Shown: positions 6,087-63,333, counted from the stretch's first letter. The stretch is 64,000 nt of DNA from Candidatus Omnitrophota bacterium (GCA_029261035.1 JAJDCD010000005.1:91516-155515); one strand, 5' to 3'. Made by a program: numbers and translations. The notes: generated by a model from the sequence alone, not told the origin.

Positions 6087-6193
6087 CCTTGTTTTACTTG
6101 TATTCATCTCCAGTTTTAATTCTAAATTGCCGAAGAGAATATATGCGTTATACTTAGTTTAAACGGATTGTTTTAAACAAAAAAGAGGTTTTC

Positions 6194-20717: not shown

Positions 20718-20814
20718 CACTGTATTCGTCTTCAGATTGTTTTATTTCGTATTTTTGCTATAATACCGGCCCTATTTAAAGTTTAGTTTAATGATGAGAA
20801 AGGAAGTTATTTTT

Positions 20815-29879: not shown

Positions 29880-32800
29880 ATGACGTTAAAGTCTTTTCAA
29901 AAATCTCAGATTTTTGTTCGTTCTATAAGTATGCTAGTTCTGTCTGTCTTTTTGTTAGACTCTACGGTACAGGCCAGTCAGCTTAGTGTTCTTTCTCAGC
30001 AAGCTCCTTTAATTGTTGCTCCCAAGTATTTAAAATTACCTAATATTATTCCATCAGCAGAAGTAGCTCAGGTGGACGATTACTTCCTAAATGATTTATC
30101 TCACAAACCTATTCTTTATTTAATTCAAGATGCTCATGAGAGCTTAGACGCTCAGAAAAATATATATCAACTTTTAAAAATGTTAGTTCAAGAACGCGGA
30201 GTAAAAAAGGTTTATTTTGAGGGGGGAGCTACAGAATTAGATAAATCTTTTTATCAGTTTTCCAATAAGCCAAAGTTAAATCAAGATGTCTGGGAAGCCT
30301 TATTTGAATCAGGAGAGATGAATGGTGTTGAGTTTTACTCTACACAAGCGCCTGAGTATGTTCGTTTTTTAGGTGTTGAAGATGAATCATTGTATTTTGA
30401 AAATGTTTATGCCTTGAAAAAGGTATTTGATCTTCAAGATTTAACAAAAGAAAGATTAAATGAGGTAGAGCGGAAAATAGAGAATCTTAAGGGGGTTCAT
30501 TTAACCGGAGACTTGAAAAAAGTTTGGGATCTTCAGCAAAGCTTCGATAAAAAGCATATTGATTTATTTCAGTATGCAAACGAAGTGAGTCGTTGGACTG
30601 AGAAAGAGTTGCGTCTGGATATGTCTCAGGTTAGAAATCAGGATGCATGGCCTCAGTTGGTTCGTTTACAGCAAATCCGTATTTTAGAACAAGGAATACA
30701 ACAATCTCAAAAGGCCTTGCGCGTAGAGCTTCAATTGATTCAAGAAAGAAATAGAGGGGAAGTATTCCAACCATTTTCATTTTTATGGAACCCACAACAG
30801 CATGCTTTAGCTCAAGGGCATTTGAGATGGTATTTTGAAAAGTGTCTAGATCTCTTGAAAAAAAATAATCAATCTTTTAGTAAAGATTATCCACACCTAG
30901 AAAGCTGGATTGGTTTTCATATACTTAAAGATGAAATAAAAGCTTCAGATTTATTTAACGAGATTCAAGTATTGACGAATAAAGTTATTGAAAATATAGA
31001 AGTTTCCAATAACAGCAAATCTTTTTTGAGTTGGCTTCAGAAATGGAATTTATTTCAGAAATTAATCTTGGTTAAACTAAATAAAGAAGAGTGGCTTCAG
31101 ATTTTAAATCAAGAAGAAGCGTATGACCCTGTTAAACTATTAAATAATCCAGAATACTTCCAAGAACCTATTGAGAGTCTGGATATACTTCATCAACTTT
31201 ATCAAGAATCCCTTCAGAATTACCATTGTGTTACCCAAAGAGATCAGACTCTTTTTAATAAGATGATTCAAGACATTACTGCAAGTCCATCAGATTCCGT
31301 TTTGGTCATGGGAGGTTTTCATTCAGACGCCGTAAAAGCCTTGTTGAAACAAGAAAGGCAAAGCTTTGTTGTTTTTAATCCTGGAATTAAAGACTTGTCT
31401 CATACATTAGATTACAAATCCTTAATGACAAGAAACTCTATAAGTTCAATGAAGGAAGTTTCCCGAGATCAGGTAGCGGTTCCTTATGAAGCGGCATTTG
31501 GTGCAGATTCAAAAAATATCATTCCTTACCAAGAAGCTGTTCGTCAGCAAGCTCAGATTGCCTTGGCCGCAAGTTTAGGAAAAGTGAAGCATGGTGATGA
31601 GCCCTGGTTATCCGCTTTTGTTGCCATTGAATCCTTGATTGATGAGAATGATGTGATTTTTAGACTTGTATTTGAAGACGAATTTACAACGGAATTCCTC
31701 AAAGAAACATTAAGAAATATTTCAGACTCTTCACAAAGAAGGCTTCAAATTGATTCTGCTCATTTACTCAAAACATTTCTTATAACTACTTATGAAGAAA
31801 ACCATGATATCCTTGCCCCCAATTTCAGAGAATGGCTAGAGGAATTCAAAGGTTTGGCGAATGAACTTTATTCTAGAATTATGGAAATTTCAGATGCAGA
31901 GAATATTGCGGGCTTCTTAGAGAAAGGGCTCTTAAGTCAATATGACTCTAAGGGCACAACGACTGATATTGCAAAATTTAATGGGATTATGGATTTGGCA
32001 GGTATTGTTCAGGGAATGAATTCTCCTGTTAGAGATATTTATTCAGCAAGTCGTATAACAAATTTACTTTCTCCAGAAGTTCTTTTCTCTCATTCTGTAG
32101 TTCAAGGTCTGGATTTTGTTCAAGATGGAGAAGAGGTTGTAATCTATCATGAAGAAATTGATGATGAAGACGGAAATATTTTATTTTTTATTTTTATTAT
32201 TGATCAAACAATAGAACAAGGGGATGTTAAATCTACCCAAAGACGTGATTTCTTAATGAGCACCGTAACGGGTGATGTAATTCCTCTTGCTGTGGGGCAC
32301 GAGGATATTTTCTGGACAGAAGAAGATCAGTTACTACATGTCTTATATCCTCCGAATTTGGAAATTACTTATGACGTATTTTTGAAGCTGGATGATGGTG
32401 GGTTCGAGCCATTAAAGGCGCCTTATACAGCAAATAGTTTGGGGGCTTCAGCAGAGGATGGATCTGATCTTTCAAAGCAAGAGCGACTTAAACTACGACG
32501 TAATACTTTAAAATCTGTTTTAGACGATTTGATTGAGGATAAGACCTTTGTTACTTCATGGGGATTAGTTGGTGTTTTAGTGGAAAGAATTCTGGAGAAA
32601 GAACCTCGTTTAGCACAATTTGTGAATCGAAAACTTATTACAAATGACTTAAAGAAACCTGGAATTAAAGATAAATATACTAATTTAAGGAAGTTAATTA
32701 ACAAAAGAAAGGAGTCTTTGTCTGTTGCTGATATATCCTTAAAGACCAATACCATTACAGATGTGCGAAGAGCCTTGATGAAGCAGATTCTTTCCGAAAT

Positions 32801-35800: not shown

Positions 35801-38800
35801 TGGAATGTTACTTACTTTTCCAGAGTTTGAGAACCTTCTTGAAGTAAATAGTGATTTGTTTATTGATTACAGACAAATTGCTAGCTCTGGTAAGGCAAGG
35901 GTGCTACGCATTATGACAAAGGTTTTGGACTATTCAGAACGTTCTCTAACTTATAGAGATCTTCAAGCAATTCTTAAAGAAAAATTCAGTATTTATTTGG
36001 TACCAGCGTATCTTTATAACATCATTACAGAGAAAAATTCATTATCTTATTCTATTGTGAACCATCCAAAATATACTTTCCTTTCAGTGGGTCAACAAGA
36101 AGAAACTCACAAAGACGAAGTCTTTCAAGGGTTTTTAGGTCGCAGGGTGTATGAAGCCCTTTTCGTTACCAATACACGAATTACTACAATTGCTGATATC
36201 AGGGAATTGATTAAGCGAGGATATGTCGTTGGAGAAAGGTCGGATGAAGAAGTAGATCAAGCAATTAAGAATTATATTAATCAATCTATTTTGTTTAGGA
36301 ATGGACAAGGCCAATTTATAGGCCATTCGAACTTACTCGTTGATCTTGATTTTGTTGAACCAACTCGCCCTGGATATGATCAAACCATAACAGAGGCCGA
36401 AGTGGATCTGAGATTTGTGAATGAAGAGGTTGTTGAAGTAGTTACACAGGGACCTTCTGAAGTTAGAAAGATAAAACAAGCAGAAAAAACTAAGCTTGTT
36501 GTAGCTGGTATTTTGGCCATACTGAATGAGGTAGCGGAAGAACAAAAGTATAAGCATGCTGTAGAAAAAAGATTACTTAATGCTAATGATATTGCCGCTC
36601 TTTTAAAAGAACGTTCCCCTGAGCTTTTGCCATCTACGCGAACCCGAAATAATGAAATTTTTCATTATATTTATTCAAATGAGTCTCTTTATCATCATCC
36701 AATGTATGTTAGGCCTTTGAGATCTGGAGAAATTCTAACTGCGGCAGTATCTATTTTAGAGAAAAGTGAAAAAAAATTAGGCTCTTTTGATTTGTGGTTG
36801 GAATTAAGAGATTCTCCAGCTCTTCAAAATATTTCTTTTCGGGACTTTAAAAGAGCTATGAAAAACAGGGATGATCAATTTGATTTGTTTGAAAATTTCA
36901 AACCTTTAAGTGAGTCAGATGAATTAGAAAATGCTTTGCTTTTTATGGATGAATTGACTGCAAATAAAGATTTTTTAGAAATAAAAGGAATGTTAAGAAA
37001 CTTCTTTGATATTGACGCTACACCGGAGTCGATAGTTCGACTGTTAGGGCAAGGTATTGAAATAGATATTGATAACGCATTGAAACAAAGATATTTTGAG
37101 GACTTTATTTCTTTTCAAGTAGGTGGCGGGTATGGGTTAACTTTTGTCGGGGTTTTGAAAGCTTTGGAAGAAAGTTATGGTTGGGAATTGAGAGAAGAAG
37201 AATTGATCAACGTTATTCAAACAAGTTCTAATTTAAGTGTATATAAATATTTCTCGCCACGACTGATTGTTGCTATAGAAGCTAAAAGAATACTAGATAG
37301 GTCGGATAGAAAGATTACTATTGAAGAAATTCATCAACGGATGAAAGAGCGACTTCCTGATGTCAAAAGTATTCATAATGATAATGCTTTAAGCCTTTTA
37401 GACTTTATGATGGAAAGAGACCTTGTTGGTTTATATCACCACCCAAAATTTAAGTCGAAGGATTCTGTAACTATAGAGAAACTGTGGGAAGAATTTAACC
37501 AATTAAATATTTCAGAAATTACAGGAAGTGATTCTGTAAGCATATCCAAGACAAATAAGGATAGAGTTTTGATTGTTACATCTTATAGTCCAAAGCAAGT
37601 AAGACAACGTACTATTTTAGAGGAGTTAGATATTAAATACAACCAGCCTATTCCTGAAAATGCTTGGACTGGATTAAGAAGAGATATGACGGCGGCAGAA
37701 GTATTGAGTGCTATAAAAGAAAAATTTGGAGTTGTTGTTTCCCCCGCAGAATTTAGAAGAATAGCTCTTAGAAAATCTGGTAGTACATCTGACCTGTTAG
37801 CGCATACGCGTTATATGGGTTACATCAACGAAAGAAGGTTAAGGATTAAACAGGTTTTAGACAGGAAAAAAGTAACTCGATTTAGGCTTATGCCTAGTGA
37901 TATTGCGAGAGAAATTTTAGATGAGTTTCAGATATCTGCAACTACAACAGATATTATGAAGGATTTGATTGTTATTGATGGTGGATCTTATATTCATCAT
38001 CCAAATTTTCTACATCAGAGAGAAGTAGTTCAAGCCAAGAAAGATGCTGTAAGAGAGTTGTTGATAGAAATAGCCAATGGAAGAGATGCTGTAGATGTTA
38101 AATTTAGTACTCTTATACCAAAGCTGAAAAATCTATATGGTTTTGAGGTGGCTCTTCGAAGTTTGGAAAAGATTTTTAGAGATAGTAAAAATTACTATGA
38201 TTTTAGAATTAGTCGTCAACAAGGAGATATGACGGCTCATATTCAAAAGTTTAAAACTGATGAGCCTCAAGCGCAACCAACGAAGCCGACTGTTGAAAGA
38301 GCGGAAGCATCTAGTTTGGGTGCAGCAATTAACCGAGATGATGTAATTCGTTTTGAAGAAAGTTACGATGTGACTTTGGAAAGTGTTTTAGATATTATTT
38401 CGGCAACACGGGAAGTATTGGGGCCTGATTTAAGAGACTACTTTCCTTATATTTACAAACAAATGTTAGCAGCACTTGAAAAAGAATCTGAGGTGCAAGT
38501 GCCTGCTTTGGTTGTTGCAGGGGAGGTAAGTCCTGAAGCGGTGCTGGTGCAAGTTAAATCAAATACAACGTTTGTTATTTACTATCAAGACGAAAGTTAT
38601 CCAGAGCAAATTGCTGTTGTAGCAGAAGAATTGATTCAATCAGGATTGATTGCCAGAGAAGATATAGATTCTCATATTCATTTGGTTTCTTTAAGTGATT
38701 TAGGTATTACAGAGCTTGAATTTTATGAACAATTATTTGATGGAGAAAAACTAACAGGTAAGAACCTTGCGCGCATTGCAAATGACGCGGGTATTTACAA

Positions 38801-39116
38801 ATTAAGAGAGCATACAGTATGGTTAGATTCCTCAGAGCGCATTCAAACTGTGATGGAAGATATGCTTGTCCCTTTTGGTCTACCATTTGAAGCAGAGCGC
38901 CGGGATTCTCTTTTAAAAGAGAATCGTGCTTACTATGACATGATTAAATTGACTTTGGCCTCTGCTTTATCTAGAAATCCTAACGCTTTAGTTGAACGGG
39001 GATATGTCATCTTTAAAAATAACCGCTACCAAATGACTGACTCCTTCATCGCTTCATACCTCGAAGGAATCTTGACCCAAGAACGAGTACAAGACCTCAT
39101 TGCCAGCATGGCATAA
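29880..39116 (+). CDS. Giant protein 1 (3078 aa): signal-peptide-like N-terminus, N-domain shared with giants 2 and 3, degenerate internal repeats with a recurrent YHHP-type motif, and a shared C-terminal domain
   Basis: Uninterrupted 9.2-kb ORF. N-domain motifs 'YLIQDAHESLDAQKNI', 'VYFEGG' and 'MGGFHSDAV' are shared with the other two giants. The C-terminal 270 aa are homologous to the ends of giants 2 and 3. Confidence 0.85.
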   Translation: MTLKSFQKSQIFVRSISMLVLSVFLLDSTVQASQLSVLSQQAPLIVAPKYLKLPNIIPSAEVAQVDDYFLNDLSHKPILYLIQDAHESLDAQKNIYQLLKMLVQERGVKKVYFEGGATELDKSFYQFSNKPKLNQDVWEALFESGEMNGVEFYSTQAPEYVRFLGVEDESLYFENVYALKKVFDLQDLTKERLNEVERKIENLKGVHLTGDLKKVWDLQQSFDKKHIDLFQYANEVSRWTEKELRLDMSQVRNQDAWPQLVRLQQIRILEQGIQQSQKALRVELQLIQERNRGEVFQPFSFLWNPQQHALAQGHLRWYFEKCLDLLKKNNQSFSKDYPHLESWIGFHILKDEIKASDLFNEIQVLTNKVIENIEVSNNSKSFLSWLQKWNLFQKLILVKLNKEEWLQILNQEEAYDPVKLLNNPEYFQEPIESLDILHQLYQESLQNYHCVTQRDQTLFNKMIQDITASPSDSVLVMGGFHSDAVKALLKQERQSFVVFNPGIKDLSHTLDYKSLMTRNSISSMKEVSRDQVAVPYEAAFGADSKNIIPYQEAVRQQAQIALAASLGKVKHGDEPWLSAFVAIESLIDENDVIFRLVFEDEFTTEFLKETLRNISDSSQRRLQIDSAHLLKTFLITTYEENHDILAPNFREWLEEFKGLANELYSRIMEISDAENIAGFLEKGLLSQYDSKGTTTDIAKFNGIMDLAGIVQGMNSPVRDIYSASRITNLLSPEVLFSHSVVQGLDFVQDGEEVVIYHEEIDDEDGNILFFIFIIDQTIEQGDVKSTQRRDFLMSTVTGDVIPLAVGHEDIFWTEEDQLLHVLYPPNLEITYDVFLKLDDGGFEPLKAPYTANSLGASAEDGSDLSKQERLKLRRNTLKSVLDDLIEDKTFVTSWGLVGVLVERILEKEPRLAQFVNRKLITNDLKKPGIKDKYTNLRKLINKRKESLSVADISLKTNTITDVRRALMKQILSEIEASNAGLAVGDQVKLTSHQLLEMMIQRKPELKEKIRLDATQNDIARGIIKSSALLTYKKQPKIKEGFDYTAVATMKQILDEWGELPAKGEELLERLWMIQPKGLSNKIEIPAFYELVENIPYIYFHPNYTARRYRTDSRSINDLRRTIRRLLNSNKVLTPFQVWEQLKKKSKFRDLFYVDFNRAFQEEAFPGQFEEMTREQAVNEMVRWILNRGVFQYRMTDLHQSLETVFGMKITLKEVRKAVQTNQELYYHKRFDAGRERRELIKTILVDSEDIWSISYSALFTLLTTDLFDEEGLLSRLSFKKLTKKQLNLDLEILGIDDTNSRLTYVDSGTVKPFDYAETRVFVEDVLTILNGNRNLELQQIFKKLRREFPRNEIYQRLTLQTFRREFTNSPQLVLHRRYLLPRVKYKQDRTLRRELLRVLDEYPRLSRYGLWSRLRQRKGFENIPYYRIRPFFESGSVDDLEIVEHKRFGNENERGYIRTFVIWILDNVPVKRKVVVGDIQQALLYGFDINVTRELIRGSIFHSRDGLHSDNRMDIDQERKEILIDYFSDYNLQTISLSQLQSDLRGLAQYLDFSDEVILADLEAVGLLDRVTLETATLTTDGSEVTVTDPLDSSGNTVRTLGAAPEIELGEGGSETRFRVRDLVLEGKRERPDTASHFGYARMNDEVISARRREMMRILNEAQELEVPIGPRELWDSLRSRPGFELSTLATVFYDLKRIPELGNHPGRRRVDRLTLQEHDDSDESLMRKLTDRVMSEITSWNLFRSNEDKLFLTPEELYDVIIEAHNSLAERLGLEQFVAFISEENINYQYLVERKSFSELETRYQVLAVTLLVDYLNEEGTSPASIEEHFLKLKSIDPDLFSSIESASFFSIWAQFPQLNYHPKIQGNNRSQLGLDEIELRQLQYRISGRLNAAERPLTSLDLQQALRIVNGMEIELSELQEELRSPENRTNFFEHPNFDSGYEQRLMLAEVWAGADGIMSELELYEEFFQRFGMLLTFPEFENLLEVNSDLFIDYRQIASSGKARVLRIMTKVLDYSERSLTYRDLQAILKEKFSIYLVPAYLYNIITEKNSLSYSIVNHPKYTFLSVGQQEETHKDEVFQGFLGRRVYEALFVTNTRITTIADIRELIKRGYVVGERSDEEVDQAIKNYINQSILFRNGQGQFIGHSNLLVDLDFVEPTRPGYDQTITEAEVDLRFVNEEVVEVVTQGPSEVRKIKQAEKTKLVVAGILAILNEVAEEQKYKHAVEKRLLNANDIAALLKERSPELLPSTRTRNNEIFHYIYSNESLYHHPMYVRPLRSGEILTAAVSILEKSEKKLGSFDLWLELRDSPALQNISFRDFKRAMKNRDDQFDLFENFKPLSESDELENALLFMDELTANKDFLEIKGMLRNFFDIDATPESIVRLLGQGIEIDIDNALKQRYFEDFISFQVGGGYGLTFVGVLKALEESYGWELREEELINVIQTSSNLSVYKYFSPRLIVAIEAKRILDRSDRKITIEEIHQRMKERLPDVKSIHNDNALSLLDFMMERDLVGLYHHPKFKSKDSVTIEKLWEEFNQLNISEITGSDSVSISKTNKDRVLIVTSYSPKQVRQRTILEELDIKYNQPIPENAWTGLRRDMTAAEVLSAIKEKFGVVVSPAEFRRIALRKSGSTSDLLAHTRYMGYINERRLRIKQVLDRKKVTRFRLMPSDIAREILDEFQISATTTDIMKDLIVIDGGSYIHHPNFLHQREVVQAKKDAVRELLIEIANGRDAVDVKFSTLIPKLKNLYGFEVALRSLEKIFRDSKNYYDFRISRQQGDMTAHIQKFKTDEPQAQPTKPTVERAEASSLGAAINRDDVIRFEESYDVTLESVLDIISATREVLGPDLRDYFPYIYKQMLAALEKESEVQVPALVVAGEVSPEAVLVQVKSNTTFVIYYQDESYPEQIAVVAEELIQSGLIAREDIDSHIHLVSLSDLGITELEFYEQLFDGEKLTGKNLARIANDAGIYKLREHTVWLDSSERIQTVMEDMLVPFGLPFEAERRDSLLKENRAYYDMIKLTLASALSRNPNALVERGYVIFKNNRYQMTDSFIASYLEGILTQERVQDLIASMA

Positions 39117-39274
39117 CGACAAAATACGCAGGTTCGTCATGCGCTACAAATAGGCGTGTCCGGCAAACGTCAGCATCTATCTTTTTTTAATAATAGATTA
39201 CCACAGCAAAAAAGTTTCTTATTTAAAGTCTATTTCCACTCATTTGGGTCCGGGCCCGAACGACTAAGGAAATT

Positions 39275-39316
39275 CTGTCATCTTTGAGCCTAAGCGAAGG
39301 ATGACAAGATTTTTTC
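39275..39316 (+). terminator. Terminator-like hairpin plus T-run downstream of giant gene 1
   Basis: 'tctgtcatc' ... 'gatgacaag' stem followed by 'tttttt'. Confidence 0.4.
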
Positions 39317-39317
39317 C

Positions 39318-39366
39318 AAACAGGCCCGGGCCTCTTTTTTTCGAAAAAAGTAGGCCCGGGCCTGTT
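39318..39366. repeat. 49-bp palindromic element, copy 1 (two GGCCCGGGCC-core palindromes flanking a T7/A6 hairpin)
   Basis: 'aaacAGGCCCGGGCCTctttttttcgaaaaaagtAGGCCCGGGCCTgttt'. Near-identical to 45443-45494. A third, degenerate 'gggtccgggccc' lies at 39246. Confidence 0.6.
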
Positions 39367-39631
39367 TACGTATTTACGGTTAGGTAAAAAAGGGCATATT
39401 TGACTTAAATTGTTTATTTATATCTATTTAAATTTCAGAATCTTAAAATTCCTTCATTTTTTTCGATTTTCCTCATAATTAGTACTTGAAATATAAAGTC
39501 TATAGGGTAGAATTACGTCTAAATTATCCTTTGTTAAAGTATTAAAAAAATATAATTTTTCTCAAAGGTTCTCACATTAGCTTAAAGGAGTAAGCGAATA
39601 TAATACGACAACAAAGAAAGGGACCGCTCCC

Positions 39632-42600
39632 ATGACGCTTTTGATACGTTTTAAGCAGGCCGTAACCTATTTTGTTTTAGTTTCATTTTTCTTCTCATTT
39701 CTTCCAACAAATTCTTATGCAGATGGTGCAACCATTGGTACAATAAACAGCCTTATGACCACCAATCAATCTATGACACCAACACAACTCAAATTAAGCG
39801 AAGTAGCCATCCCTAATAAGATAGGTGTTATTGAATATACCTTCAAGGGGAACTCTGCGCCTTTATTTTATATTCAGGATGCTCATAATTCATTAGAAGC
39901 TCAAAAAAACATAGCGGCTTTAATTAGTCTTTTGGTGCAAGAGTACGGTGTTAAGACTGTTTTGGTTGAGGGAGTTGAAGGTAAGGTAAATCTGGACACT
40001 TATTTTCAATTTTCAGATTCTAATGTTAAGGAAAAAGTTTCAGACTATTTTCTGGAACACCTTCGTCTGAGCGGAGCTCAATATGCTCATATTAATCGAA
40101 CCCAAGATTTTGATCTTATTGGAATTGATCATTTTAAAACATATAAGAAAAATCTTTCAGCCTATGAAAAAGCTGCAAAAAACCGAGAAGTCATTCAGCA
40201 AGACTTGGCTCGAATTTCTAAAGTTCTTAAGTCTTTAGGGGATCGTTTCTATTCTAAAGAAATTAAGGAATGGTTAAAGTTAAAGTTAAGAGTGGAAGAT
40301 AAAAAGCTTTCGATGGGGGATTACCTGTTTCGTTCGATGAAAATGGGCGATTTTCAATTAGAACAATTTCCAAATTTGAAATTAATTTCAACATACCTCA
40401 AACAAGATCAATTATCTAAAGAAGAAGCAAGCCTTTTAGACAAACAATTGAAACAATTGGATTCGGATGTTTTTTTTAATGAATTGAATCAATTTGAAGA
40501 GGCTTTAATTAATCAGTTTTTGACGGACGCTACAGCTAAACAAGTATTAAGATATCAACGTATCGTTGATTTGTTAAATAAACTGAACCTGATTTCAGTA
40601 ACACCGGAAGAGTATTTATTGTTGAAAGAAGAGTTGAAAGAATTTAACTCTGAAGTTCTGGCTAAATTTTTAGCTGCCCATTTAAAGAAAACAATTTTAG
40701 TAAAAAAAGAATGGGAAAAGCTAATCAAGAACTCCCTTGAGTTTTATGAGTTGGCTCGCGAAAGGGATGTTTTCTTCAAAAGACAACTTGAAGCAATTAA
40801 CACCCCTTCAATTTTGGTTACAGGAGGTTTTCATAAAGAGCCTGTGACTAACTTCTTGAAAAAGAATAAAATTTCTCATGCTGTTTTGGCACCTCAAATT
40901 AGTCGTATCAATAAGAAGTATCAAGAACGATATGATTTCTTAATGTCTGGTCAGTATTATGACTTTGAAACATCTTTTATCAAACAAGACCCTGCCGTAC
41001 AAGCAGCTCAGCAGCAAACCTTAGCTTCATTTGCTCGAGATGGGCGGAATGTTCAAGGGATTGTGAATGAAGCGATTATTCAGTTGTTTCCTAATTCCCA
41101 AGAGGCTCGTGCTGCTAGTTTAGGAAATGATAATGCTCTAAAAATTGAACAAGCTTTGAGTCAGGGAGATATTACAACCGGAACCATGCAGTATCTTTAT
41201 GAGTGGTTGAAGCTTCCTGGAGACTTAACTATTCAAGGGACAAATGTATTAGCACGTATTCAGACATTGATAGATGGTAAAAATTGGAAAGAGCTTAATG
41301 ATGCTTTTTTTCAAGAAGTAAAACCAGGAACGGCAGGTGTTCGTGGAGAGTTGGGGATCGGAAGTAATCGAATTAATGTGGTAACCATTGGTAAGTTTGT
41401 AGAAGGTCATGCTCGCCACTTGGAAGCTGTGTGGGCTGGTAAGGTTGAAGGAAAAGAGATTGATACAAACAAGACAGAAAAGGCTGTAATTTTAGCTTAT
41501 GATCCTAGAGAAGGTTCTTATGACGCCCAAGCTAAAGGGCCAGGTTATTTAGTTAAAATGGCTGCTGCCATTTATGCAGCGCATGGATTTAAAGTTTACG
41601 TGTTTGATGGTCCTGCACCAACGCCAGAGTTGTCCTTTGCAGTTCAAAAGCTGGGGGCATTAGCAGGTGCTGTATTTACAGCAAGCCATAATCCTAAAAC
41701 GGATAATGGGTTTAAACCTTATGACGAAACAGGTCAGCAACTTTTAGGCCCAGATGCTGAAGGTCTAAATCAATATGTGGCTGAGATAAAACAGTTTTCT
41801 GATGTGAAAAAAGCATCTTATGATGAAGCTCTTGAGAAAGGGCAGGTTGAAATTGTAGGGCCTACCATTGATGAACAATATGTAAGTGAGTTGCTTCAGT
41901 ATGGTGTGCACATTAAAGCTGATGGTAAATATGACCTAGAACACATTAATACAGATATTACTGTTGGATTTTCTCCTTTGCATGGTACAGCGGGAAGAAC
42001 AGTTCCTGCTTTATTAGCAGAAAGAGGAATTTCTGCAGAAAATATTTTTAATGTTGAAAGCCAATTAAAACCTGATGGAACATTTCCAACAGCAGCAAAG
42101 CCCAATCCAGAAGAGGATGCGGCGTTAGATTTGTTAAAACAATTGGCAGTTGAAAAGAAAGTTGATGTAGCAGCAGCCAACGATCCTGATGCAGATAGGG
42201 TTGCTGTTTTGGTTCCAACCAGTGATGCTAAAGAAGAGTATTTTCTTCTAAACGGGAATCTACAAATGGCAGTGATTGCGGATTATTTACTGAACCAACT
42301 TTCTAAAAAAGGAACTTTACCTAAAAATTCTGTTTTTTGGAAATCTTTGGTGAGCTCAGATCTTATGATGAAAATAGCAGAAGCTTTTGATATTCCAACT
42401 GTAGAATCCCGAGTTGGTTTTAAATTTGCCGGGGATAAAATGAAGGAATACGAAAAACTAGCCGTTGCTCAATTGTTATTAAATGATGAAGAAGAATTTG
42501 TTGCTATTAAAACAAAAGTTGAAAACGACGGGTACAAGAGTCTAAATCGATCCGAAAGAGAATTGATTCTTTCTCGTTTCTCTCAAGTTCTATTGTTTGG

Positions 42601-45355: not shown

Positions 45356-45374
45356 TCTCGATTTCGTTCAAAAT

Positions 45375-45407
45375 GGGCCAGGTCCTTCGGGAGCCTGGCC
45401 TTTTTTG
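45375..45407 (+). terminator. Rho-independent terminator downstream of giant gene 2
   Basis: 'gggccaggtcc ttcg ggagcctggcc' hairpin followed by 'ttttttgtc'. Confidence 0.6.
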
Positions 45408-45442
45408 TCTCCACCTCATTCCACATCATCCCTTTTATCCTC

Positions 45443-45494
45443 AAAACAGGCCCGGGCCTCTTTTTTGCGAAAAAAGCAGGCCCGGGCCTGTTTT
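45443..45494. repeat. Palindromic GGCCCGGGCC element, copy 2
   Basis: 'aaaacAGGCCCGGGCCTcttttttgcgaaaaaagcAGGCCCGGGCCTgtttt'. A near-perfect 50-bp palindrome. Confidence 0.6.
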
Positions 45495-45539
45495 AAGAAT
45501 TTTGAGAAAAAACTCTGTAACTTGTTTATTTTCAAAGGT

Positions 45540-45580
45540 TTAAAAATTAGCTCTTTAGTTGCAATTCTTTTATAATAGGG
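45540..45580 (+). promoter_or_regulatory. Candidate promoter for giant gene 3 (perfect -10 TATAAT at 45571-45576; weak -35)
   Basis: TATAAT lies 94 nt upstream of the GTG start at 45670. No strong -35 hexamer at 16-18 nt spacing. Confidence 0.3.
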
Positions 45581-45669
45581 TACACTTCTACCTTATTCTT
45601 AGGTAATTCCTTTGTTGTAACTTTAGGTTCTGGAGACTTAAATCAAGGGAGTTCTATACCCTGAATAAA

Positions 45670-51600: not shown

Positions 51601-54600
51601 TTAGAGTTATTGGCCAACATTCAATCACATGGTCACTTGCTTCGCACGATTCATACTCCTATGGTCCAAGAAGAGGAACGGTGGGAGGGGGCTTTTCATG
51701 GAAATTTACATCCAGCAAATGTGAGTGTGGATCCTGATTATTTTCTAAATATTCATGATTTAACCCATGCATACAACAAAGAAGAAGTAAGTTCATTGAA
51801 AGAGCAATTTGCAAGACAGTTACTTGATTTTGATGCTGCTTTATCGAGAACTCTAGAAGATAAAGTTTTCATGGACTCGCAGTTACAAGACTTTCATGTA
51901 AGGAAAGGGTTGCCTGTTTCTTGGAAGGGTATGGAGTATGTGAAAACTTTTCTTCTTGGCTATTTTTATGATTTTCCACCAGAAGTTATTGAAAAAGTGG
52001 CTAGAACCATGGTTATGGAGATAGAGGGACACCCCATAACTCGCACCAACAATATTATACAAAAACTAGGAGTGACTCGACTTCCTGCTTATCAACATCC
52101 AGACTTTATTTTCGATCTGATGCGGTATGTTGTTGGAATTAAAAAAGATGGAACACCTCTTTTAGAAGAAGAAAAAGAATCTGCTAAGAAAGAAATAGAA
52201 CAAAAAATTCTTGCCTCCAGTTTAGGTCGTACTAAAGATCATTTTAATATGACCTTCGAAGGACATGCTTTTAATATTTTAGATGAAATGAAGAAGGGCA
52301 ATTTTAGTATGAAGTGGATTTTGAATTTTAAACCAGAACCGCTTACTAGGATACAGGTGCCGGATAAAAGTGTTTATGTGAGTCGAAAAACCGTTTTAGA
52401 AGCAGCAAAAAGAAAAAGATTTGGCTTACCTTTAAGTGCTAAACGGTTAGAACAGTTACTGAAAGCAGGTGCAATTAAGCAGAATGAGAAAGGGGAGTTG
52501 AGTCGTTATGATGCTGAGTCTTTTATAAATGCTTATAGTTTGAGAGAAACGGCTGAGCTTACAGGTCTAAATAGAGATCGATTGTCAGGCTTATCAGGCA
52601 GTAAAGACCGTATGGTTGTTGTGCAGGGAAACTATTATGTTTTCCATGATTGGATTGAAGAAATGCGGGCACGGCATCATCGCCTTGTGCCTGTTTCTCT
52701 TTTATCTGAAATGCTGAACCTAACCCATTCAACATTTCTGTCTAATCTCCGGAATCCCAAAAAATTCTTACGTCCTCATCTATTAAGGCAGTTATTCGAT
52801 GATAGAAAAAATCTGTTAGAGTCTCGATTTACAGGAGAAGAGTACCACTATTTTGGAGATCATTCTCCAACGTTGTCTGTGGATATTTTAACGGCATGGA
52901 GTATCTTTCAATTACTTCAAAGGGTTCCTAATATGGAAACGGCCAGTACGGTGGATGAATTATCTAAAAAACTTTATGTTAATAGAGTTTTTGTGTCAAA
53001 AGCTATCGAAGAAGATCGGGTTGAAGCTACTTTGGTTAGGGGTATGCGCAAAGGAGGTCCTGTTTATTTAATTGATGAAGAGGAGGTAAGGCGCATAGAA
53101 AAAGAATTTAACCAAAAATTAAAATTATTAATAAAGGAAGTTAAAGCTTATGTTGATTCAAAGGTCCCTTTAAAAACATGGGAAGATATTCAAGAAGTTG
53201 TCAAAAATTGGGATACAACAGAAACATTAAAAGAACGATGGAATTTTAAAAGTATTAGTGGTATTCATGAAATGATGAGAAGGGAAGTTTTGAAGGGTGT
53301 TAATGTTGTAAACCCCTTATCCACAGTAGGTGTGAATTATTTTCCTCCACAGGAAGTTGAGAAATTAGATAAAAGAGATAGAAATAAGCTTGATGAAATC
53401 TTGGAATTTATTAACAGATATAGAGGGTCTCCCATTACAACTCGTGCTGAGATTGATGCAGCTGTAAGTAAATGGAGCACTCCTACTTATTTATCTAAAG
53501 TGACTGGAATACCAAGGCAAACAATGACCCGAAGAGTAAAGAAGGGTGCTGTCAAAGGTGTTCTGTTAGATCTTATTGGTTTTAAAAAGAAATTCATGGT
53601 TCCTCCTTCTGAAGCCCAAAAATTTATTCAAGCAAACTCAAAAATAAGTAAAGCCTCAAGTTTAGGAAGATCTAAAGATCATTTTGATGCCACAGTCCTA
53701 GGAGAAGAAGTGAATTTGCTTGATGCCATGAAAGAGGGCGCGTTTAAAGTCCAATGGTTTTTTAGTTTTAAGACTAAGAAGCTTCCTCGAGTTGAAATTC
53801 CAAAAAAACAAAAATATCTTACTAAAAAAGAAGTGTTACAGTTAGTATCTCAAGTAAAAGGAAAAAGAAGAATTGGTCCTTTGCGTTTGAATCAATTAAT
53901 TGAGAAAGAATATATCAAAAGAGATTCTAATGGAAACTTAAATCGAGAGGATGTGTTGTTTTTTCTAAATGCATTTTCATTAAATGAAGCGGCAGCATTC
54001 ATTGGGGTAAACCCAGACAGGCTCGGTAAAATTGCCTTAGAAAATGGATCGGTGAAATATGGTAAAGAGTATTTTGTTCCATATCAATGGGTTGAGCTAT
54101 TAAGAGCCAATTTTCACGATCTTGTTCCTATTCGAATTTTAGCAGAAATGTTAGATATGGAATTTTGGAACCTGGTAAATAAATTAAGAAGCCCTTCAAA
54201 TTATTTTTCCGAAGATATTATAAAAGAGTTTTTCCCTTATCAAGAGACTTTAATTGATAAAAGAATTACAGGAGAAGAGTATCACTTTATCAATGGTAAC
54301 AATGTTTTGGCTGTTGATTTGGCTACGGCATGGATGCTGTTTGTCATATTTAGAATGTTTCCAAATCCCAAGAAAGCGGCCACATTGACTTCGTTGGCTA
54401 ATAAACTTTCTGTGAACAAAACATTGGTATCTACAGCGGTGAAGGAAGGTCGAATTAAAGCGACTCTCGTTTCTGTCTTAAAAAAGGGAGTTCCGTCCTA
54501 CTTGGTTGATGAAGAAGAGTTTGACAGAGTTATTAAGGAATACAGTAAGAAGCTGAAAGACCTTAAAGCTTTGTTAGTTCCATATCTGCGAGGTAAACAA

Positions 54601-57600
54601 CTGAAGACGTGGCAAGATATTCAGGAAGTGGTTCAAGGTTGGGATACTGCAGAATCTTTAAAAGAGAAATGGGGATTTAATCAGGTTGATAGAATCCACA
54701 GAATGGTGAAAAGGGGCCTATTAAAGGGAGTTCATGTTGTGAACCCTCTATCGGTACATGGGAAGTGGTACTTTCCACCTTCTGAAGTGGAAAAGGTAGA
54801 TGTTGTAGATCGAGAAAAACTGCAAGAAGCTTTGGGTTTTGTTAATCGCTATAGAAAAAGGAAAATACGAACTCGAGAAGCGTTAATCAAATCTCTAAAG
54901 AGATGGAGTTCGCCAGTTAAGTTAAGTAAATCAACAGGAATCCCTCGTCAGACCATGACGCGCTTGGTGAGAGATGGGTATGTGGAACATGTAAAGCTAG
55001 ATATATTAGGACAACGGTCTCGTTATGTTATTCCTCCAGAAGCTGCTAAGAGATTTATAGACGAGTTGAATGAAAAAATTATTACCTTTTCAGATAAACA
55101 CTTATCTCCTTATGGTCAAGGTGCTAGAACATATAAACAACTAAAAAAATTGCTTAATAGATGGTATACGATTTCTGAATTAAGTAAAACAACAGGAATT
55201 AACCAAGAAGAAATTGCCTGGAAAGTTGAAATCGGTGAATTAAACTCTGTCAATTTTGATTTCACTCCTCTTCAAGGGAGGATATACATCCCACCTCAAG
55301 AAGCAGAGAAATTAATTCAATCTTCAAGCGTGTCTGCTAATAGTTTAGGTGTTGCAAAAGAGCACTTTGATATTTTTGTTAATGGGAAGAAAGTAAATTT
55401 GATTGATGCGATGGTTGATGGGTCATTTCGTCCAGAATGGATAAGTCGTTTTGTCCCTAAATCTTTACATGAAGTAAGCTTAAAAAATGTTGCTCCATCG
55501 ATTACTTTTGAAAGAGCTGAAGAGTTATCAAAAAGATTGGGGCAAAGAGTTATTACTGTTTACATGCTTTCCGAATTACAAGAGGCGGGTATTATAAGTA
55601 AAGAGTTTGAAGGAATGATTTCAAAAGAAGATCTTCAGTTTTTAATTAATTCCAGAAAATTGGGGGAAGCGGCACGGCTTGTAGAGCTTAATGAGGCTGA
55701 TGTGTGGATGTTTGCTTCCAAACATGGAGCAAAAAGGTTGCGTAGAGAGTATTTCGTTCCTTTGGAGTGGATAGAAGAAGTTATGCTTAGAAAGCACCAT
55801 TTGATTCCAGTTCAGTTATTAGTTGATGAGTTGGGTGTGAACTATGCATCTTTTGTGGATCGTTTAAAGAACCCAAGAAAGCATTTCTCCAAAATTATAG
55901 CTGAGGGCTATTTGGAAGGGAGAGACTCATTGCTAGAACCTTCTCTTAGAGGCAGTCTTGTTCATGGAAATTATCAAAATTTTATGATTGATTTGTCCCT
56001 AGCGTGGAAAGTAGTTCGATTAATTAAGGAAAAATCACTGTCCGACGGATACATCACTTCGGATGTGTTAGCAGAAAGAATAGGCGTTGATGTTAATGTC
56101 ATTCTTTTAGGGATTAGAAATGAACTGATCAAGGTTAAAGAGATTTCTGATATTGCTGGTAGTGGCAAGTACCATTATGCCATTTCTGAGGATGAAGCAG
56201 AAAGAATAGAAAAATTATTTAGTGCTCAGTTGGCTGTATATCAACAGACTTTGGAAGAAAGTGGTTTTATAAAAAGAAAGTTAAACGGATGGAAAGATTT
56301 AAAGAAATTTATTCAGTCATGGCTTGGAACGGAACAGTTGAGACAGCGTTGGGGTTTTACGGGAAATCAAGCAATTATGCAGATGTACCAAAGAGGGAGT
56401 GTTTGGGGATTAGAACTAGCACATCCACTGTCAAGAACAGCAAAAGTCTTATTTCCATTGAAGGAAATTAGGAGCATTGAGAGAAAGGAAAAAATCAAAT
56501 TCGAACTTATTGCTAAATTTATTTCTGAACATGTTGGAGTAGAGGTGAATGAAAAAGCAGAAATGTCAGATGTTTTTGAAGATTGGTATACCGTAAATGA
56601 TTTACTGAAAGCCACAGGCTATAGTCGGAAAAAGGTTATGAGACAAATAAATAACGGGAATATCCCCTCAATCAAAATAGATCTACTAGCTATGCAAAGC
56701 CGTATTGTAATTCCACCCACTGTAGCTCAGCTGTGGATTGGACAACAACAAAAACCACCTTCGACAGCCTCCAGCTTAGGTAGAACAACAGAAGATTTTA
56801 ATATTACTGTGAATGGAACTCCTGTGAATTTACTGGATGCGATGATGGAAGGAACATTTCAAATATCTTATTTACTGCAACTATATCAACCTATGAAAAG
56901 ACAAGGTCATGCTCCTAAGAAAGCTTACTACTCCATTGATGAAGTGCTTGAAATCTTTAAAGAGAAGGGCAGAGGCCCTATAAGGAAGTTACATATAAAT
57001 GAGTTTGTGACAATGAAAAGAAGAAAAAAAGAGGATAAGAGAATTAGGCATGAAGAGCTTCTCTGGTTGCTGAATACGGTACCTTTAAAAGAAGTTACCA
57101 AGTCTTTAGTTGGTCAACATTCGGATTTAAGAGAAAGGGCATTAGAGGGCGGTGCTGTTTTAGTTAAAGATAGAATGTTTGTTCCTGTTGCATGGCTTTC
57201 CCAACAGCAAGAAAAACAGGCTAATTTGGTTTCTGTGGGTTTATTAGCGAAAGTTATGGGTGTTTATCGCACTAAGCTATTTAAGTATATATTGGATCCA
57301 CAAGGGATGTTTGGAGAGGCTATTTTTAATCAATATTTTCAAGACAAAGAATCGTTGTTGGAATTGTCTCAAAACGGAACAGTTTTTCATGGAACACAAA
57401 AGGCACGAATGATTACACTAGAGACAGCTTGGGCAATTGTAAGAATTTATAAAATCTCATTAGAGAGAGCGAAAGGCTCTATTGGTATTGTAGCGTTAGG
57501 CGAAGAGTTGGGTAGAGATCGTTACTTTGTTGACAAAATTATTAGAAGAGGAGAAATAGATGCTTCGTTTATTCCTTTAGTAAGTGACGGCAAATATAAA

Positions 57601-60600
57601 GACAGAATAGTAGCTTCAGAACTTGAAAGAATTAGGGCTTTATACCGTAGATCATTAGCAAGTTATTCAGATGTACTTAAAAAATATGGGGTTGGTCCAT
57701 TTAAAACATGGAGTGAGCTAGAAGAGTTTTTTGAATCATGGTATACCGCTGATGATGTAAGGCGTAGATTTGGTTTTAAAATCAAACGAAGTGTTTATGA
57801 TATGTCTGAACGTGGAGTCTTGACCGGTATTCATGTAGCATCCCCTCTGATGCCACAAGGCCAAATTCGTTTTTTTCCAGTAGAAGTTGATAATCTTTTT
57901 AATAAAGACTTAGAGAGAGTTAATGAGATTTTGGTATTTATTAATCGCTTCAGAAAGCGTCCTATAGGAAATAAATCTCAAATACAAAGAGCAATTCGCG
58001 ATTGGTATAAACTGCCTCAGTTAGAAAAAAAATGGGCTGTCTCAGATGGAACTTTGTTAGATTCAATTAACAAAGGGAGCTTAGAAGCTATTAATATTGG
58101 CTTGATAGGAATGAAAGAACAAGGCTACTGGGTTCCAAGGCAAGAAGTACAGCGAATTGAAAAAGAACAGAAAAAAAGAAGAGAAGAGATTCTGAAATTT
58201 GTTTCTCAATATACAGATGAATCGATTAATACTACAAAACAACTTAAAAAAGCAACTCGTAAATGGTTCGCTGTTGAAGGAGCTGCAAAGAGGTTGGGGG
58301 TAAAGAAATCTCTGATAAAAAGTATGATTAAACGAAAAACCATTAGAAGTGTGAAGATGGATTTGCTTGGTTATGGAGGGGGTAATACGTTGATGATGAT
58401 CCCTCCTCAAGAGATAGGAAGAATCGAAAGGGAAGAAAAAGAAAAGTTAGATAGAATTATAGCTGATATTTCTCAATTTACTGAGAAACCTTTAATGACA
58501 GTAGAAGATGTTTTGAGAGCAACTCAAAGTTGGGTTAAAGCAGAAGAGTTTGCTAAAGAATTTGGTGTGAATACGGCCCATGTTTTAGCTTTAATTAGAT
58601 CTAATAAAATTCGTGCAGTTGAAATGAATTTATTGAAAGTTCGTGGAAATAAAATGTTTTATTTGATTCCTCTTTCTGAAGTGGAGCGTTTTAAATTAGA
58701 TCAAAAAAATCAGCTTGCTGAAATTATTCCACAAGTACGTGAATATACGGATGCCGAGATTGACACTATTGAAGGTTTGAAAAAAGCAACATTAGATTGG
58801 AGCAGTACGGGGGACTTTTCAAGAGAGTTTGGTTTTCCTGCAGCATCAGTGACTCGTATGATTAAGGCTAACAATATTAAGGCTATACGATTTGATTTGT
58901 TTGGATTTGGAGGAAAAAATAGATTGTATTTAATTCCCCCACAAGAAGTTGCCAGTATAAGGCAAGAACAAGAAAGGAGATTTAAAGAGGTTCAGAATTA
59001 CTTGCTTCATAATTTTAATATCGAAATTATGACATTGACTGATTTAGAAGAAGTAACTCAAGATTGGTTAGGGAAGGAAGATGTTAGGAGAGCTTTAAAA
59101 ATAAGTCAGGCAACATTTTATTCTCATGTGAAGGATAGAAAAGTTAAATCCGTATTTATTGACTTGTTGGGCTACAAAAGAAGAGCTGGTTATTATGTGT
59201 CTCCATATGAAGTGGAAAGGTGGGGGGGAGAGAGTTTAGATGAAGGGGCTTCAAAAAGGAAAGGTGAAAATATAAAATTAAAAGCAAAAAAAATTAAATC
59301 TAAAGCTTCTAGTTTGGGTAGAGAGATAGCGCTTTTGGTTGCGGAAGAGTATCCTTATAATCAGTTGGTGCTTATACTTGATCGTGTAGACAGTTCATCT
59401 GATTATGCTGAGTTTGAGATTCGTTCTAAGAAACAAAAAATTGGAGAAGGAAGTTTTTTTAAGGGAGATGATCATTGGAATTTAGTCCACTTTGAATTGG
59501 GTTCGGAGTATAACTACCAGGAGGAAGGTAAGGAGGTTATAAAGTGGTTTGCTCGATACCTTCAGAATATGTTTCCAGGGAGTAGAAACCCTTTAAGGTT
59601 TGGTTGGGTGTATAACCCTGAAATGTTGAGTTTGGCTCACTCTGTTTTTGAACCAGACTCCATGGAAATAATTTTTAAAAAACCTGGACCGTGGTATTCC
59701 ATGGCTGATCCTAGTTTTAACTTGTTTTACTCTGCAGGTCCTTTACGTATTTATGATGATGTCCCTCTTTCTACAAAAGAAATTAAAGTTATTAAACAAG
59801 GGAGTTTTTACGTTCCTGTGAGCTATCCTCAAGAGGTGAAAAATGTCGTAGTAAGCAAATATCACGTATCAGCACGATATAAAAGTACAGGTAACTTATT
59901 GAGAAAGATTCAGTTTGAGAGACCCTTTTCTATTAAAGGAAAGATACGGAAATCTCTATTGTCTTCCGCACGTTCTCTAGGGGATGAGCAGGATGAGTAT
60001 GGATTAACTCGAAAGCAAAAAGAAGCAGTGCATCATTTCTTGTTTCCTAAAGACTTATCAGGTGAAGCAATATTAAAACAGGTTTTGATGTTACTTATCC
60101 CATATATCCTTTTAGGGGGATTGGTGGCTGCTGTGATGAGTCGTGAGAAAAAGTCAGATAATCAAGCGGTTCCTCAATCAACATCAGAAGGGAAAAGTTT
60201 AGGTGGGACACGGCCTTTGTCTGCGGTAGATTATTTTGCTCAACTGGAACAAGAGCTGTCTGAAGCTTGGCAAGCTTGGGATCATCAAAGCTCGATGATG
60301 GATATGGGTTTTGTCGAATCTGCTTTAGAGCAAAAAACAAATTATTACGCATTGATGGGTCTTATAGCAAATTCGTTTATGCATTTTTCAACTCCTACAT
60401 CAAAATTAGAAGAAGATGACGTAGTTCTTTATATTGCGCCAAATCAAAATGGTAACACAGGTATTTACCGTGTTTTAAGTGTATCTGGAATGCAAGTTCA
60501 ACTGATGAATGTAGCAAACAAAACAATTTTAGTAGCGGAGACGAAGAAAATAAGAAGGATTGATTTATCAAAACCTAGAATTATGTCTCAGGTTGAAGAA

Positions 60601-63333: not shown

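Follow-up and report, generated by a model that had tools for sequence, protein, structure and literature searches.

The window analysed here, a 64,000-nt stretch of DNA from a Candidatus Omnitrophota bacterium (GCA_029261035.1 JAJDCD010000005.1:91516-155515), carries three giant, co-directional open reading frames (ORFs), P1, P2, and P3, and housekeeping genes of ordinary type fill the 30 kb upstream of P1. The three proteins are punctuated by copies of a short peptide motif centred on S-L-G, which falls at the ends of their N-terminal domains, at the entry into their C-terminal domains, and around enzyme modules in between. P1-P3 are members of a large family of polyprotein-like giants in Omnitrophota, and the motif, which is real and occurs far above chance, is a trait of this family rather than a local quirk.

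The proteins differ in what they carry between their termini. In P1, a signal-peptide-like N-terminus and a TIKI-like N-domain are followed by SLG565, a 288-aa module, SLG853, ~1960 aa of tandem small domains, SLG2812, and the C-domain. P2 consists of the N-domain, SLG496, a phosphoglucomutase (PGM) module, SLG1205, a UDP-glucose pyrophosphorylase (UDPGP) module, SLG1714, and a C-terminal domain, whereas the N-domain of P3 is followed by 12 SLG sites distributed between HTH_17-rich repeat modules, other modules, a one-helix membrane mini-module, and the C-domain. Whole-protein scans against Pfam and NCBIfam returned zero matches for P1. In P2 they detected phosphoglucomutase domains I-IV (aa 564-1170) together with a domain of UDP-glucose pyrophosphorylase that matched best over aa 1434-1529, and in P3 many excisionase-type HTH_17 (helix-turn-helix) domains, several per module; these scans found no peptidase domain in P1-P3.

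Several features of the three ORFs stand beside this layout. The start of P3 is ambiguous between a GTG at 45670 (5887 aa) and the Met of MGFLLAQ ten codons later (window 45670-45699), and the length of the database copy of the protein (P0005, 5877 aa) would correspond to the later start. An unannotated small domain (70-260 aa) is repeated in tandem ~11 times or more in P1 aa 856-2809 (window 32445-38306); every copy closes with hydrophobic-H-(H)-P-x-[FY], e.g. YFHPNY or YHHPKF, and the copies have neither Pfam matches nor the junction motif between them. The mini-module of P3 (aa 4772-4840) contains one strong hydrophobic helix (aa 4805-4823); similar helix-bearing segments lie directly after SLG sites in the family members P0058, P0100, and P0009, and hydrophobic stretches precede the C-domain of P0001. 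If the chain were cut, the P3 mini-module would yield a small single-pass membrane protein.

The junction motif in P1-P3

The tripeptide SLG occurs 19 times in P1-P3 where 4.65 occurrences are expected, and it is the top-ranked tripeptide by enrichment. Sixteen of these sites read A-x-SLG and two read G-x-SLG (YGQSLG, P3 aa 788; SEGKSLG, P3 aa 4843), while the last one, KVLKSLG at P2 aa 201, lies within the N-domain, has no small residue at -2, and probably arose by chance. The 16 A-x-SLG sites compare with 0.27 expected, and 2000 shuffles of P1-P3 gave a mean of 0.28 and a maximum of 3. A sequence-only reading of this stretch had quoted 17 peptides as a recurrent junction motif, all of which we found where it had placed them, together with one more G-x-SLG site (P3 aa 4843), and the comparison with shuffled sequence shows the motif to be enriched. 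In the other 29 ORFs of the window, [AG]-x-SLG is at background (1 observed, 0.63 expected). A relaxed motif, [AG]-x-[SRT]-L-[GAS], was tried and rejected; it added only five sites in P1-P3, approximately the number expected by chance, and the version, or dialect, of the motif used in this window is therefore strictly SLG.

Part of the sites occupy paralogous positions, namely the three N-domain ends, the three C-domain starts, and five repeat-module starts in P3; once these are collapsed, ~9 independent contexts remain. Five P3 modules open with SLG-R-T-K-D-H-F. The sequence-only reading had also held that positions are equivalent across the paralogues, and this agrees with our alignments: a motif follows each N-domain, and the BLAST high-scoring segment pair of the ~270-aa C-domain shared by P1 and P3 begins exactly at the SLG (P1 2810 corresponding to P3 5595). 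In the AlphaFold2 (AF2) model of the C-domain, the predicted local distance difference test (pLDDT) score is below 50 in the segment that contains the entry motif, which we took as exposure. Its placement of the motif at essentially every module boundary, however, was overstated. Sites do mark N-domain ends, C-domain starts, and enzyme modules, but P1 aa 853-2812 contains at least 11 tandem small domains with zero motifs between them, and the P3 modules each contain several HTH_17 domains.

At the DNA level, the junctions had been described as sharing a nucleotide string. The full string, GCN-TCN-AGT-TTR-GG, is indeed present at 6/19 sites, but it is merely the back-translation of A-S-S-L-G, and the Ala and Gly codons of the motif vary synonymously. 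The octamer AGTTTRGG was found 14 times in frame 0 of the P1-P3 genes and five times elsewhere, that is, on either strand or in other frames. Given this enrichment in frame 0 only, the variable Ala and Gly codons, and the different peptides used by other lineages, we discarded the idea that the motif is primarily due to a signal in DNA or RNA. The Ser codon behaves differently from the Ala and Gly codons: it is AGY at 15/19 window sites, compared to 31% gene-wide (binomial p ~2e-5), and at 9/11 sites in distant homologues (L001-L004), the gene-wide shares being ~31-33%. This pattern suggests that the codon class is frozen and that the sites multiplied by duplication together with their modules. 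Where position -1 is Ser, its codon is always TCN, a single step away from GCN, the codon of the alternative Ala.

Table 1. Coordinates of P1-P3, their domains and junction sites in the window, and of enzymes bracketed by junction sites in P2 and in relatives
Feature	Window position	Strand	Protein position and remarks
P1	29880..39116	+	ORF, 3078 aa
P2	39632..45355	+	ORF, 1907 aa
P3	45670..63333	+	ORF, 5887 aa (longest-ORF call)
P1 N-domain	29880..31439	+	aa 1-520; signal-peptide-like segment and TIKI/ChaN/EreA-like core split by helical insertion
P2 N-domain	39632..41041	+	~aa 1-470; 24% identical to P1 N-domain, same conserved residues
P3 N-domain	45670..47229	+	~aa 1-520; 34% identical to P1 N-domain
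P2 PGM module	41126..43237	+	aa 499-1202; Pfam PGM_PMM I-IV
P2 UDPGP module	43253..44764	+	aa 1208-1711
P3 mini-module	59983..60189	+	aa 4772-4840, ~70 aa; motif on each side
P1 C-domain	38322..39113	+	aa 2815-3078
P3 C-domain	62467..63330	+	aa 5600-5887; 29% identical to P1 C-domain
AASLG	31566..31580	+	P1 aa 563-567, after N-domain
ANSLG	32430..32444	+	P1 aa 851-855
ASSLG	38307..38321	+	P1 aa 2810-2814, C-domain entry; pLDDT below 50 (AF2)
AASLG	41111..41125	+	P2 aa 494-498, N-domain/PGM junction
AASLG	43238..43252	+	P2 aa 1203-1207, PGM/UDPGP junction
ASSLG	44765..44779	+	P2 aa 1712-1716, UDPGP/C-domain junction
ARSLG	47323..47337	+	P3 aa 552-556, after N-domain
GQSLG	48025..48039	+	P3 aa 786-790, repeat module 1 start (SLGRTKEAYNM...)
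ASSLG	50521..50535	+	P3 aa 1618-1622; homologous P0009 module starts 2 aa before its SLG
ASSLG	52213..52227	+	P3 aa 2182-2186, repeat-module start
ASSLG	53653..53667	+	P3 aa 2662-2666, repeat-module start
ANSLG	55336..55350	+	P3 aa 3223-3227, repeat-module start
ASSLG	56767..56781	+	P3 aa 3700-3704, repeat-module start; Ser codon AGC
ASSLG	59305..59319	+	P3 aa 4546-4550
ARSLG	59968..59982	+	P3 aa 4767-4771
GKSLG	60190..60204	+	P3 aa 4841-4845; absent from the sequence-only list
AASLG	61141..61155	+	P3 aa 5158-5162
ADSLG	62452..62466	+	P3 aa 5595-5599, C-domain entry
PGM			P2 aa 564-1170; flanking sites 496, 1205
Hexokinase			P0082 aa 3692-4177; flanking sites 3682, 4185
Methyltransferase			P0082 aa 3283-3399; flanking sites 3162, 3438
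Amino-acid kinase			P0009 aa 739-1046; flanking sites 731, 1079

Outside the giant genes, a 171-aa ORF (window 20791-21306, plus strand) consists largely of EEAPKAEE/AAPAAE low-complexity repeats, and a long antisense Ala/Ser/Gly-repeat ORF that overlaps it (window 20772-21188, minus strand) is probably a repeat artefact.

A family-wide punctuation and a sister locus with split genes

A profile search with the N-domain retrieved 9396 cluster representatives from 1.84 billion proteins, and 6188 of these had an E of 1e-30 or lower; a word-indexed homologue search had given only 3, then 2 matches. The N-domain stands at the N-terminus of family members, whose lengths range from ~400 to 7376 aa among the best 150, and all members with a named source come from Candidatus Omnitrophota. 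In the same 150 proteins, [AG]-x-SLG was observed 239 times (20.5 expected), and the resulting logo, [A/V/S]-x-[A/G]-[A/S]-S-L-G, has its information confined to positions -4 to +2. The motif is kept among homologues that are ~30% identical, while the flanks are unconserved, and other Omnitrophota metagenome-assembled genomes (MAGs) carry it after the N-domain and before the C-domain.

De novo motif enrichment, performed on each protein separately, revealed that other family members use other dialects. One example is R-S-E-[VLMAT]-R in P0083, in which RSE was found 23 times (1.9 expected), nearly always within this pattern. Further members carry R-x-E-M-R, R-x-E-L-R, or K-S-E-G-R, and G-A-R-L-[A/S] was found in L005, a high-GC Omnitrophota MAG. 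We rejected a one-step codon link from the AGY Ser of SLG to the Arg of the GARL dialect, since the GARL Arg codons are all CGN. The nearest neighbour of an N-domain shares its dialect in 51/58 cases. A clean two-clade split of the N-domains by dialect was likewise rejected, because unweighted pair group clustering with arithmetic mean (UPGMA) does not separate the classes at ~70% distance. Class-specific N-domain positions, e.g. residue 508 (R/K/H vs D/E), may simply track phylogeny.

None of 206 SLG-type and none of 210 RSE-type sites falls within an N-domain, the first site follows the N-domain at a median distance of 44 aa (SLG-type) or 68 aa (RSE-type), and the median spacing between sites is 331 aa or 277 aa, respectively, close to the length of a single ordinary protein. 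Segments delimited by sites match autonomous proteins, as documented by the PGM and UDPGP modules of P2 (see below) and by enzymes of relatives that are bracketed by sites (Table 1), the margins between the bracketing sites and the enzymes being ~8-10 residues. The modules that P3 and P0009 have in common are arranged differently in the two proteins, and they align from two residues before SLG onwards.

The C-terminal ends of these proteins are also shared features. Multi-module family proteins (P0004-P0150) almost all end in -[A/S/M]-A-COOH; a C-terminal Ala was found in 24/27 SLG-class and 27/31 RSE-class proteins, with or without the C-domain, and the window proteins end in ...ASMA (P1, 39105-39113), ...ESAA (P2, 45344-45352), and ...ATMA (P3, 63322-63330). 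As this end resembles the small-small residues just before the junction motif, it may mimic the end of a cleaved product, or else be a C-terminal recognition tag. Among the best 150 family proteins, the P1-type C-domain itself is limited to the closest subclade (14 proteins). Its AF2 model (pLDDT 68) has a generic Rossmann-like alpha/beta fold, for which the best Foldseek match had an E of 4e-3 and a template modelling (TM) score below 0.3.

A natural counterpart of P2 exists in L009, the P0009-bearing contig, which shares synteny with the window. On this contig, P0013, orthologous to P1, is followed by a PGM gene (710 aa), a UDPGP gene (495 aa), and P0009, which is orthologous to P3. Here, PGM and UDPGP are stand-alone genes with a 4-nt overlap between the two, and their products are 57% and 56% identical, respectively, to the middle modules of P2. 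The C-terminus of the L009 PGM aligns to P2 residue 1204, directly before S1205-L-G; Met1 of the UDPGP aligns to P2 residue 1209, 2 aa past G1207, and its C-terminus to residue 1710, three residues short of S1714. PGM probably starts at M18, which aligns ~3 aa after P2 G498. The ends of the stand-alone enzymes thus lie within 0-3 residues of SLG triplets, and what P2 adds to the two enzymes is essentially the junction motif together with the N- and C-domains. Judged by this sequence comparison, the architecture of P2 is that of a polyprotein. Two details of the sister locus may be added. The 5' extension of the PGM ORF, RDDRASDLI, stands opposite QEARAASLG of P2 and may be a decayed junction copy, and near-identical hairpin-like sequences, TTTGTCATCCCGCACTTGATGCGGGATCC and TTTGTCATCCCGGACTTGATCCGGGATCC, flank the PGM-UDPGP pair (6018-6115, 9732-10000); these may be repetitive extragenic palindrome (REP)-like or miniature inverted-repeat transposable element (MITE)-like repeats, or terminators.

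The N-domain as a candidate hydrolase

AF2 models the N-domain (pLDDT 76; predicted TM score 0.67) as an alpha/beta core that is split by a ~270-aa helical insertion. Across 58 N-domains, the residues H86, Q92, E114, E361, Y448, R454, G478-G-F-H481, P501, and Y512 (P1 numbering) are invariant and E167 is nearly so (95%), while D84 is invariant in a six-sequence N-domain alignment. The only recurrent Pfam match was to Cofac_haem_bdg (ChaN, Tiki superfamily), which was obtained for 7/26 members (best E 8.2e-5) and for 6/13 core-only constructs (best E 4.1e-5); the P1-P3 N-domains themselves gave no match to curated Pfam/NCBIfam superfamily models. Among the Foldseek matches in the PDB, Bcr135 (3b55, 2rad) took ranks 1, 3, and 6, EreC rank 7, and ChaN rank 28. 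The spacing of 28 between H86 and E114 is that of the catalytic His85 and Glu113 in Bcr135, and D84-x-H86…E114…H481 parallels the 2His/2Glu set of RRSP, E3900-x-H3902…E3930…H4030, both of which are pattern matches only. RRSP, a MARTX effector, is a proven sequence-specific endopeptidase of the TIKI-type superfamily (PMC6254334), and Tiki trims eight residues off Wnt3a (PMC8191133). With this residue pattern, the N-domain looks like a TIKI/ChaN/erythromycin-esterase-type hydrolase.

By inspection, the N-termini resemble Sec signal peptides, with a positive n-region and 12-15 hydrophobic residues followed by V-Q-A, S-Y-A, or V-E-A, and the putative hydrolase would therefore sit outside the cytoplasm. 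The domain also exists on its own: in two loci, L006 (4352-10131) and L007 (1572-13030), stand-alone N-domain genes of 512 and 539 aa, respectively, with signal-peptide-like starts, lie directly upstream of giant ORFs and overlap them by 4 nt. These giant ORFs, of more than 1415 and more than 3281 aa, run off their contigs and have signal-peptide-like N-termini of their own.

Predicted processing and its alternatives

Most probably, the motif is what a sequence-specific enzyme recognises, and this enzyme is predicted to be an endopeptidase. This proposition builds on a strict 5-residue motif that exists in lineage-specific versions, on short linkers that are otherwise unconserved, on the coincidence of the sites with the termini of autonomous proteins, and on the exclusion of sites from the N-domain. 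We think it rather probable that the chain is cut at the motif. That the N-domain is the protease is a more tentative prediction; it is the best candidate because it is the only universal partner of motif-bearing proteins and has hydrolase-type residues. In the mechanism that we propose, each chain would be composed of a Sec-signal-like segment, a ~500-aa TIKI-type domain, and a string of self-contained modules, which may be whole enzymes, arrays of DNA-binding-type domains, or small membrane pieces. Very short linkers would join the modules, with [A/V/S]-x-[A/G]-[A/S]-S-L-G as their sole conserved feature, and a sequence-specific endopeptidase would cut the chain into modules at this motif. 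The N-terminal TIKI-like domain would first free itself at a site 0-140 aa past its end and would then cut the rest. Site sequence and enzyme might evolve together, which could have given rise to R-S-E-x-R, G-A-R-L-[A/S], and R-x-E-M-R in other lineages; indeed, lineage-specific site sequences are what a co-evolving enzyme-site pair would produce. A processing site with the N-domain as its hydrolase had already been put forward by the sequence-only reading, and it has the best indirect support, from the conservation of the motif, its dialects, the bracketing of enzymes, the split genes of L009, and the catalytic-type residues of the N-domain. The link between protease and site is one that we infer, and so are the scissile bond and the compartment in which cutting would take place. 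The functional class would be that of an autoprocessing polyprotein, in which the observation is well supported and the mechanism is a prediction.

A number of observations weigh against this proposal. All matches to Cofac_haem_bdg fall below the 27.7-bit gathering cut-off and are local to the GGFH region, the Foldseek matches of the N-domain (E 0.16 or more, TM below 0.2) are not significant, and PDB sequence searches yielded nothing meaningful, whether run with a single N-domain, a 26-sequence profile, or a core-only profile. The superfamily also includes proteins other than proteases, such as haem-binding ChaN and the Ere esterases. An exported-type leader is found on chains with cytoplasmic-type modules (PGM, UDPGP, hexokinase, HTH domains), and the linkers extend only ~5-8 residues past the enzyme termini, little room for a protease to gain access. 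No obvious punctuation motif was seen in the available parts of the giant ORFs that follow the stand-alone N-domain genes of L006 and L007. Finally, the dialect is constant across the paralogues of one genome though their N-domains are only ~24% identical, so that a shared trans-acting factor fits at least as well as N-domains acting in cis.

Such a factor could be a protease encoded elsewhere, in which case the N-domain would serve in export, anchoring, or as an esterase. A type I signal-peptidase-like enzyme comes to mind, since [A/G]-x-S obeys the -3/-1 small-residue rule, as do the peptidases reported in Omnitrophota giants, among which C39 and S8 domains have been described (West-Roberts et al., 2023). 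The logo, with its small residues at -2 and its invariant Ser, would suit this explanation, as would the single dialect of paralogues as divergent as P1 and P2 (24% identity between their N-domains) and the sub-threshold TIKI assignment. Nevertheless, we consider it unlikely, for the N-domain is the sole element common to all motif-bearing proteins and its catalytic-type residues are invariant, the scans of P1-P3 gave no other peptidase domain, and the internal sites lack the preceding hydrophobic segment that a signal peptidase would require. The neighbourhoods of P1-P3, P0083, and P0009 contained no conserved partner protease or secretion genes. It is also improbable, in our view, that the chain stays uncut and that the motif is a retained junction of module shuffling, or a structural hinge or cap that new fusions inherit with the module. 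Cassette shuffling had been among the suggestions of the sequence-only reading, and one part of it stands: modules are reordered between P3 and P0009, with alignments from two residues before SLG, but we found no conserved DNA element beyond the codons. The preference for AGY at the motif Ser, in the window and in distant homologues, suggests descent by duplication, and unprocessed multi-enzyme fusions are widespread in biology. A passive scar would, however, be expected to decay, whereas 3-5 residues are invariant amid unconserved flanks at ~30% identity; the Ala and Gly codons vary synonymously, with the 8-mer enriched only in frame, and lineages differ in their motif, each being equally strict. 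That sites are missing from the N-domain and between the tandem domains within a module points to a recognition factor. The frozen AGY codon and the shuffling pattern together indicate that junctions travel with modules, which is compatible with cleavage sites and less so with a passive junction.

The invariant Ser could, moreover, be a point of covalent modification (O-glycosylation or phosphorylation) or of partner docking, given that Ser is the one residue common to the SLG and RSE-x-R dialects and that the linkers holding the sites are short and exposed. A core Ser is, however, missing from the G-A-R-L-[AS] and R-x-E-M-R dialects, sequons are not normally restricted to the exact termini of autonomous proteins, and no glycosyltransferase or kinase was consistently linked in the neighbourhoods examined, which together make this explanation very improbable. 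A chance or compositional artefact, or an effect of the internal repeats of P3 alone, could appeal to the five instances from one repeated module and to the equivalent N-domain ends and C-domain starts; with ~9 independent contexts for 0.27 expected occurrences, hundreds of sites in unrelated modules across the family, and background counts in the other genes of the window, its probability is close to nil, and the shuffles, the family counts, and the window background refute it. A phosphopantetheine (D-S-L) site, lipobox, sortase, or double-glycine signals, as well as 2A-like skipping and self-cleavage by N-to-O acyl shift, were set aside by reasoning, because the flanks are unconserved and the residues or positions that these signals require do not fit.

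The processing that we predict has parallels in known systems. The 4545-aa MARTX toxin releases its effector domains by CPD-mediated autoprocessing (PMC4640098). Like MARTX and the large clostridial toxins, each of P1-P3 is a single giant, apparently secreted polypeptide with several autonomous modules; in the toxins, a built-in protease cuts short inter-domain linkers, which is only proposed for P1-P3. CPD cuts after Leu ahead of a small residue, and in TcdB cleavage takes place between the Leu and Gly of ...S-L-G..., which resembles the junction motif. Pfam and NCBIfam scans found no Peptidase_C80 (CPD) domain and Pfam scans no RTX repeat families in P1-P3, which have a Sec-signal-like N-terminus instead; without C80 protease and RTX repeats, they are not members of these toxin families. 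They further differ in that the candidate protease is N-terminal and of another superfamily, that the modules are housekeeping-type enzymes and HTH arrays rather than known toxins, and that the junction of the family is a strict 5-residue consensus with lineage variants. Viral polyproteins (picornavirus 3C, nidovirus 3CL) also arrange proteins head to tail with a short conserved site in between, which is recognised by a protease of the same chain and whose consensus varies among lineages. Here, by contrast, the organism is cellular and has multiple paralogous polyproteins per genome, a TIKI-like candidate takes the place of chymotrypsin- or papain-like folds, and cleavage is predicted. As regards the TIKI/TraB-PrgY/ChaN/erythromycin-esterase superfamily, the N-domain has an alpha/beta core in its AF2 model and a D/E-x-H…E(+28)…R…G-x-x-H pattern like those of Bcr135 and RRSP, and its Pfam and Foldseek links to ChaN, Bcr135, and EreC are weak but exclusive. 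It differs by the ~270-aa helical insertion that splits the core and by reaching the threshold of no curated model, and the substrates of known superfamily members are other proteins or small molecules rather than the chain to which the enzyme itself belongs.

Giant proteins have been reported from the same phylum, i.e. 'Archaeovorins', Dockerin-type giants, and 'multi-enzyme metabolic clusters', the last of which follow the same design principle and tile many enzyme domains, including PGM/PMM, along one polypeptide (10.64898/2026.06.07.730766). Post-translational cleavage has been suspected for Omnitrophota giants, with the cleavage points stated to be unknown (10.1101/2023.11.21.568195). The published examples have 10,000 aa or more, or genes >20 kb, whereas P1-P3 measure only 1.9-5.9 kaa, and the three do not qualify as a multi-enzyme metabolic cluster; P2 combines two enzyme families, the matches in P3 are mostly to HTH_17, and P1 has no match. 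The junction motif was not described in the literature that we found on Omnitrophota giant proteins, searches for related descriptions turned up none, and the 2023 and 2026 preprints on these proteins do not mention a TIKI-like N-domain.

Tentatively, we therefore propose that many Omnitrophota might express sets of proteins, including metabolic enzymes, as Sec-targeted polyproteins that an N-terminal TIKI-type endopeptidase would cut at lineage-specific 5-residue sites. If true, this would be a virus-like strategy of gene expression in a cellular organism, which could allow for stoichiometric co-delivery of proteins into a host or prey cell, or for their co-regulation, and the grammar of the sites would predict a processing map for the giant proteins of the phylum. 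The giant genes of Omnitrophota are an open puzzle, to which the junction grammar adds residue-level predictions of cutting positions and a candidate enzyme, and the split genes of L009 provide a natural control that the pieces are real proteins. If confirmed, large-scale polyprotein processing would extend beyond viruses and a few toxins to a bacterial phylum, self-processing would join the repertoire of the TIKI superfamily, and the giants could be dissected computationally, module by module.

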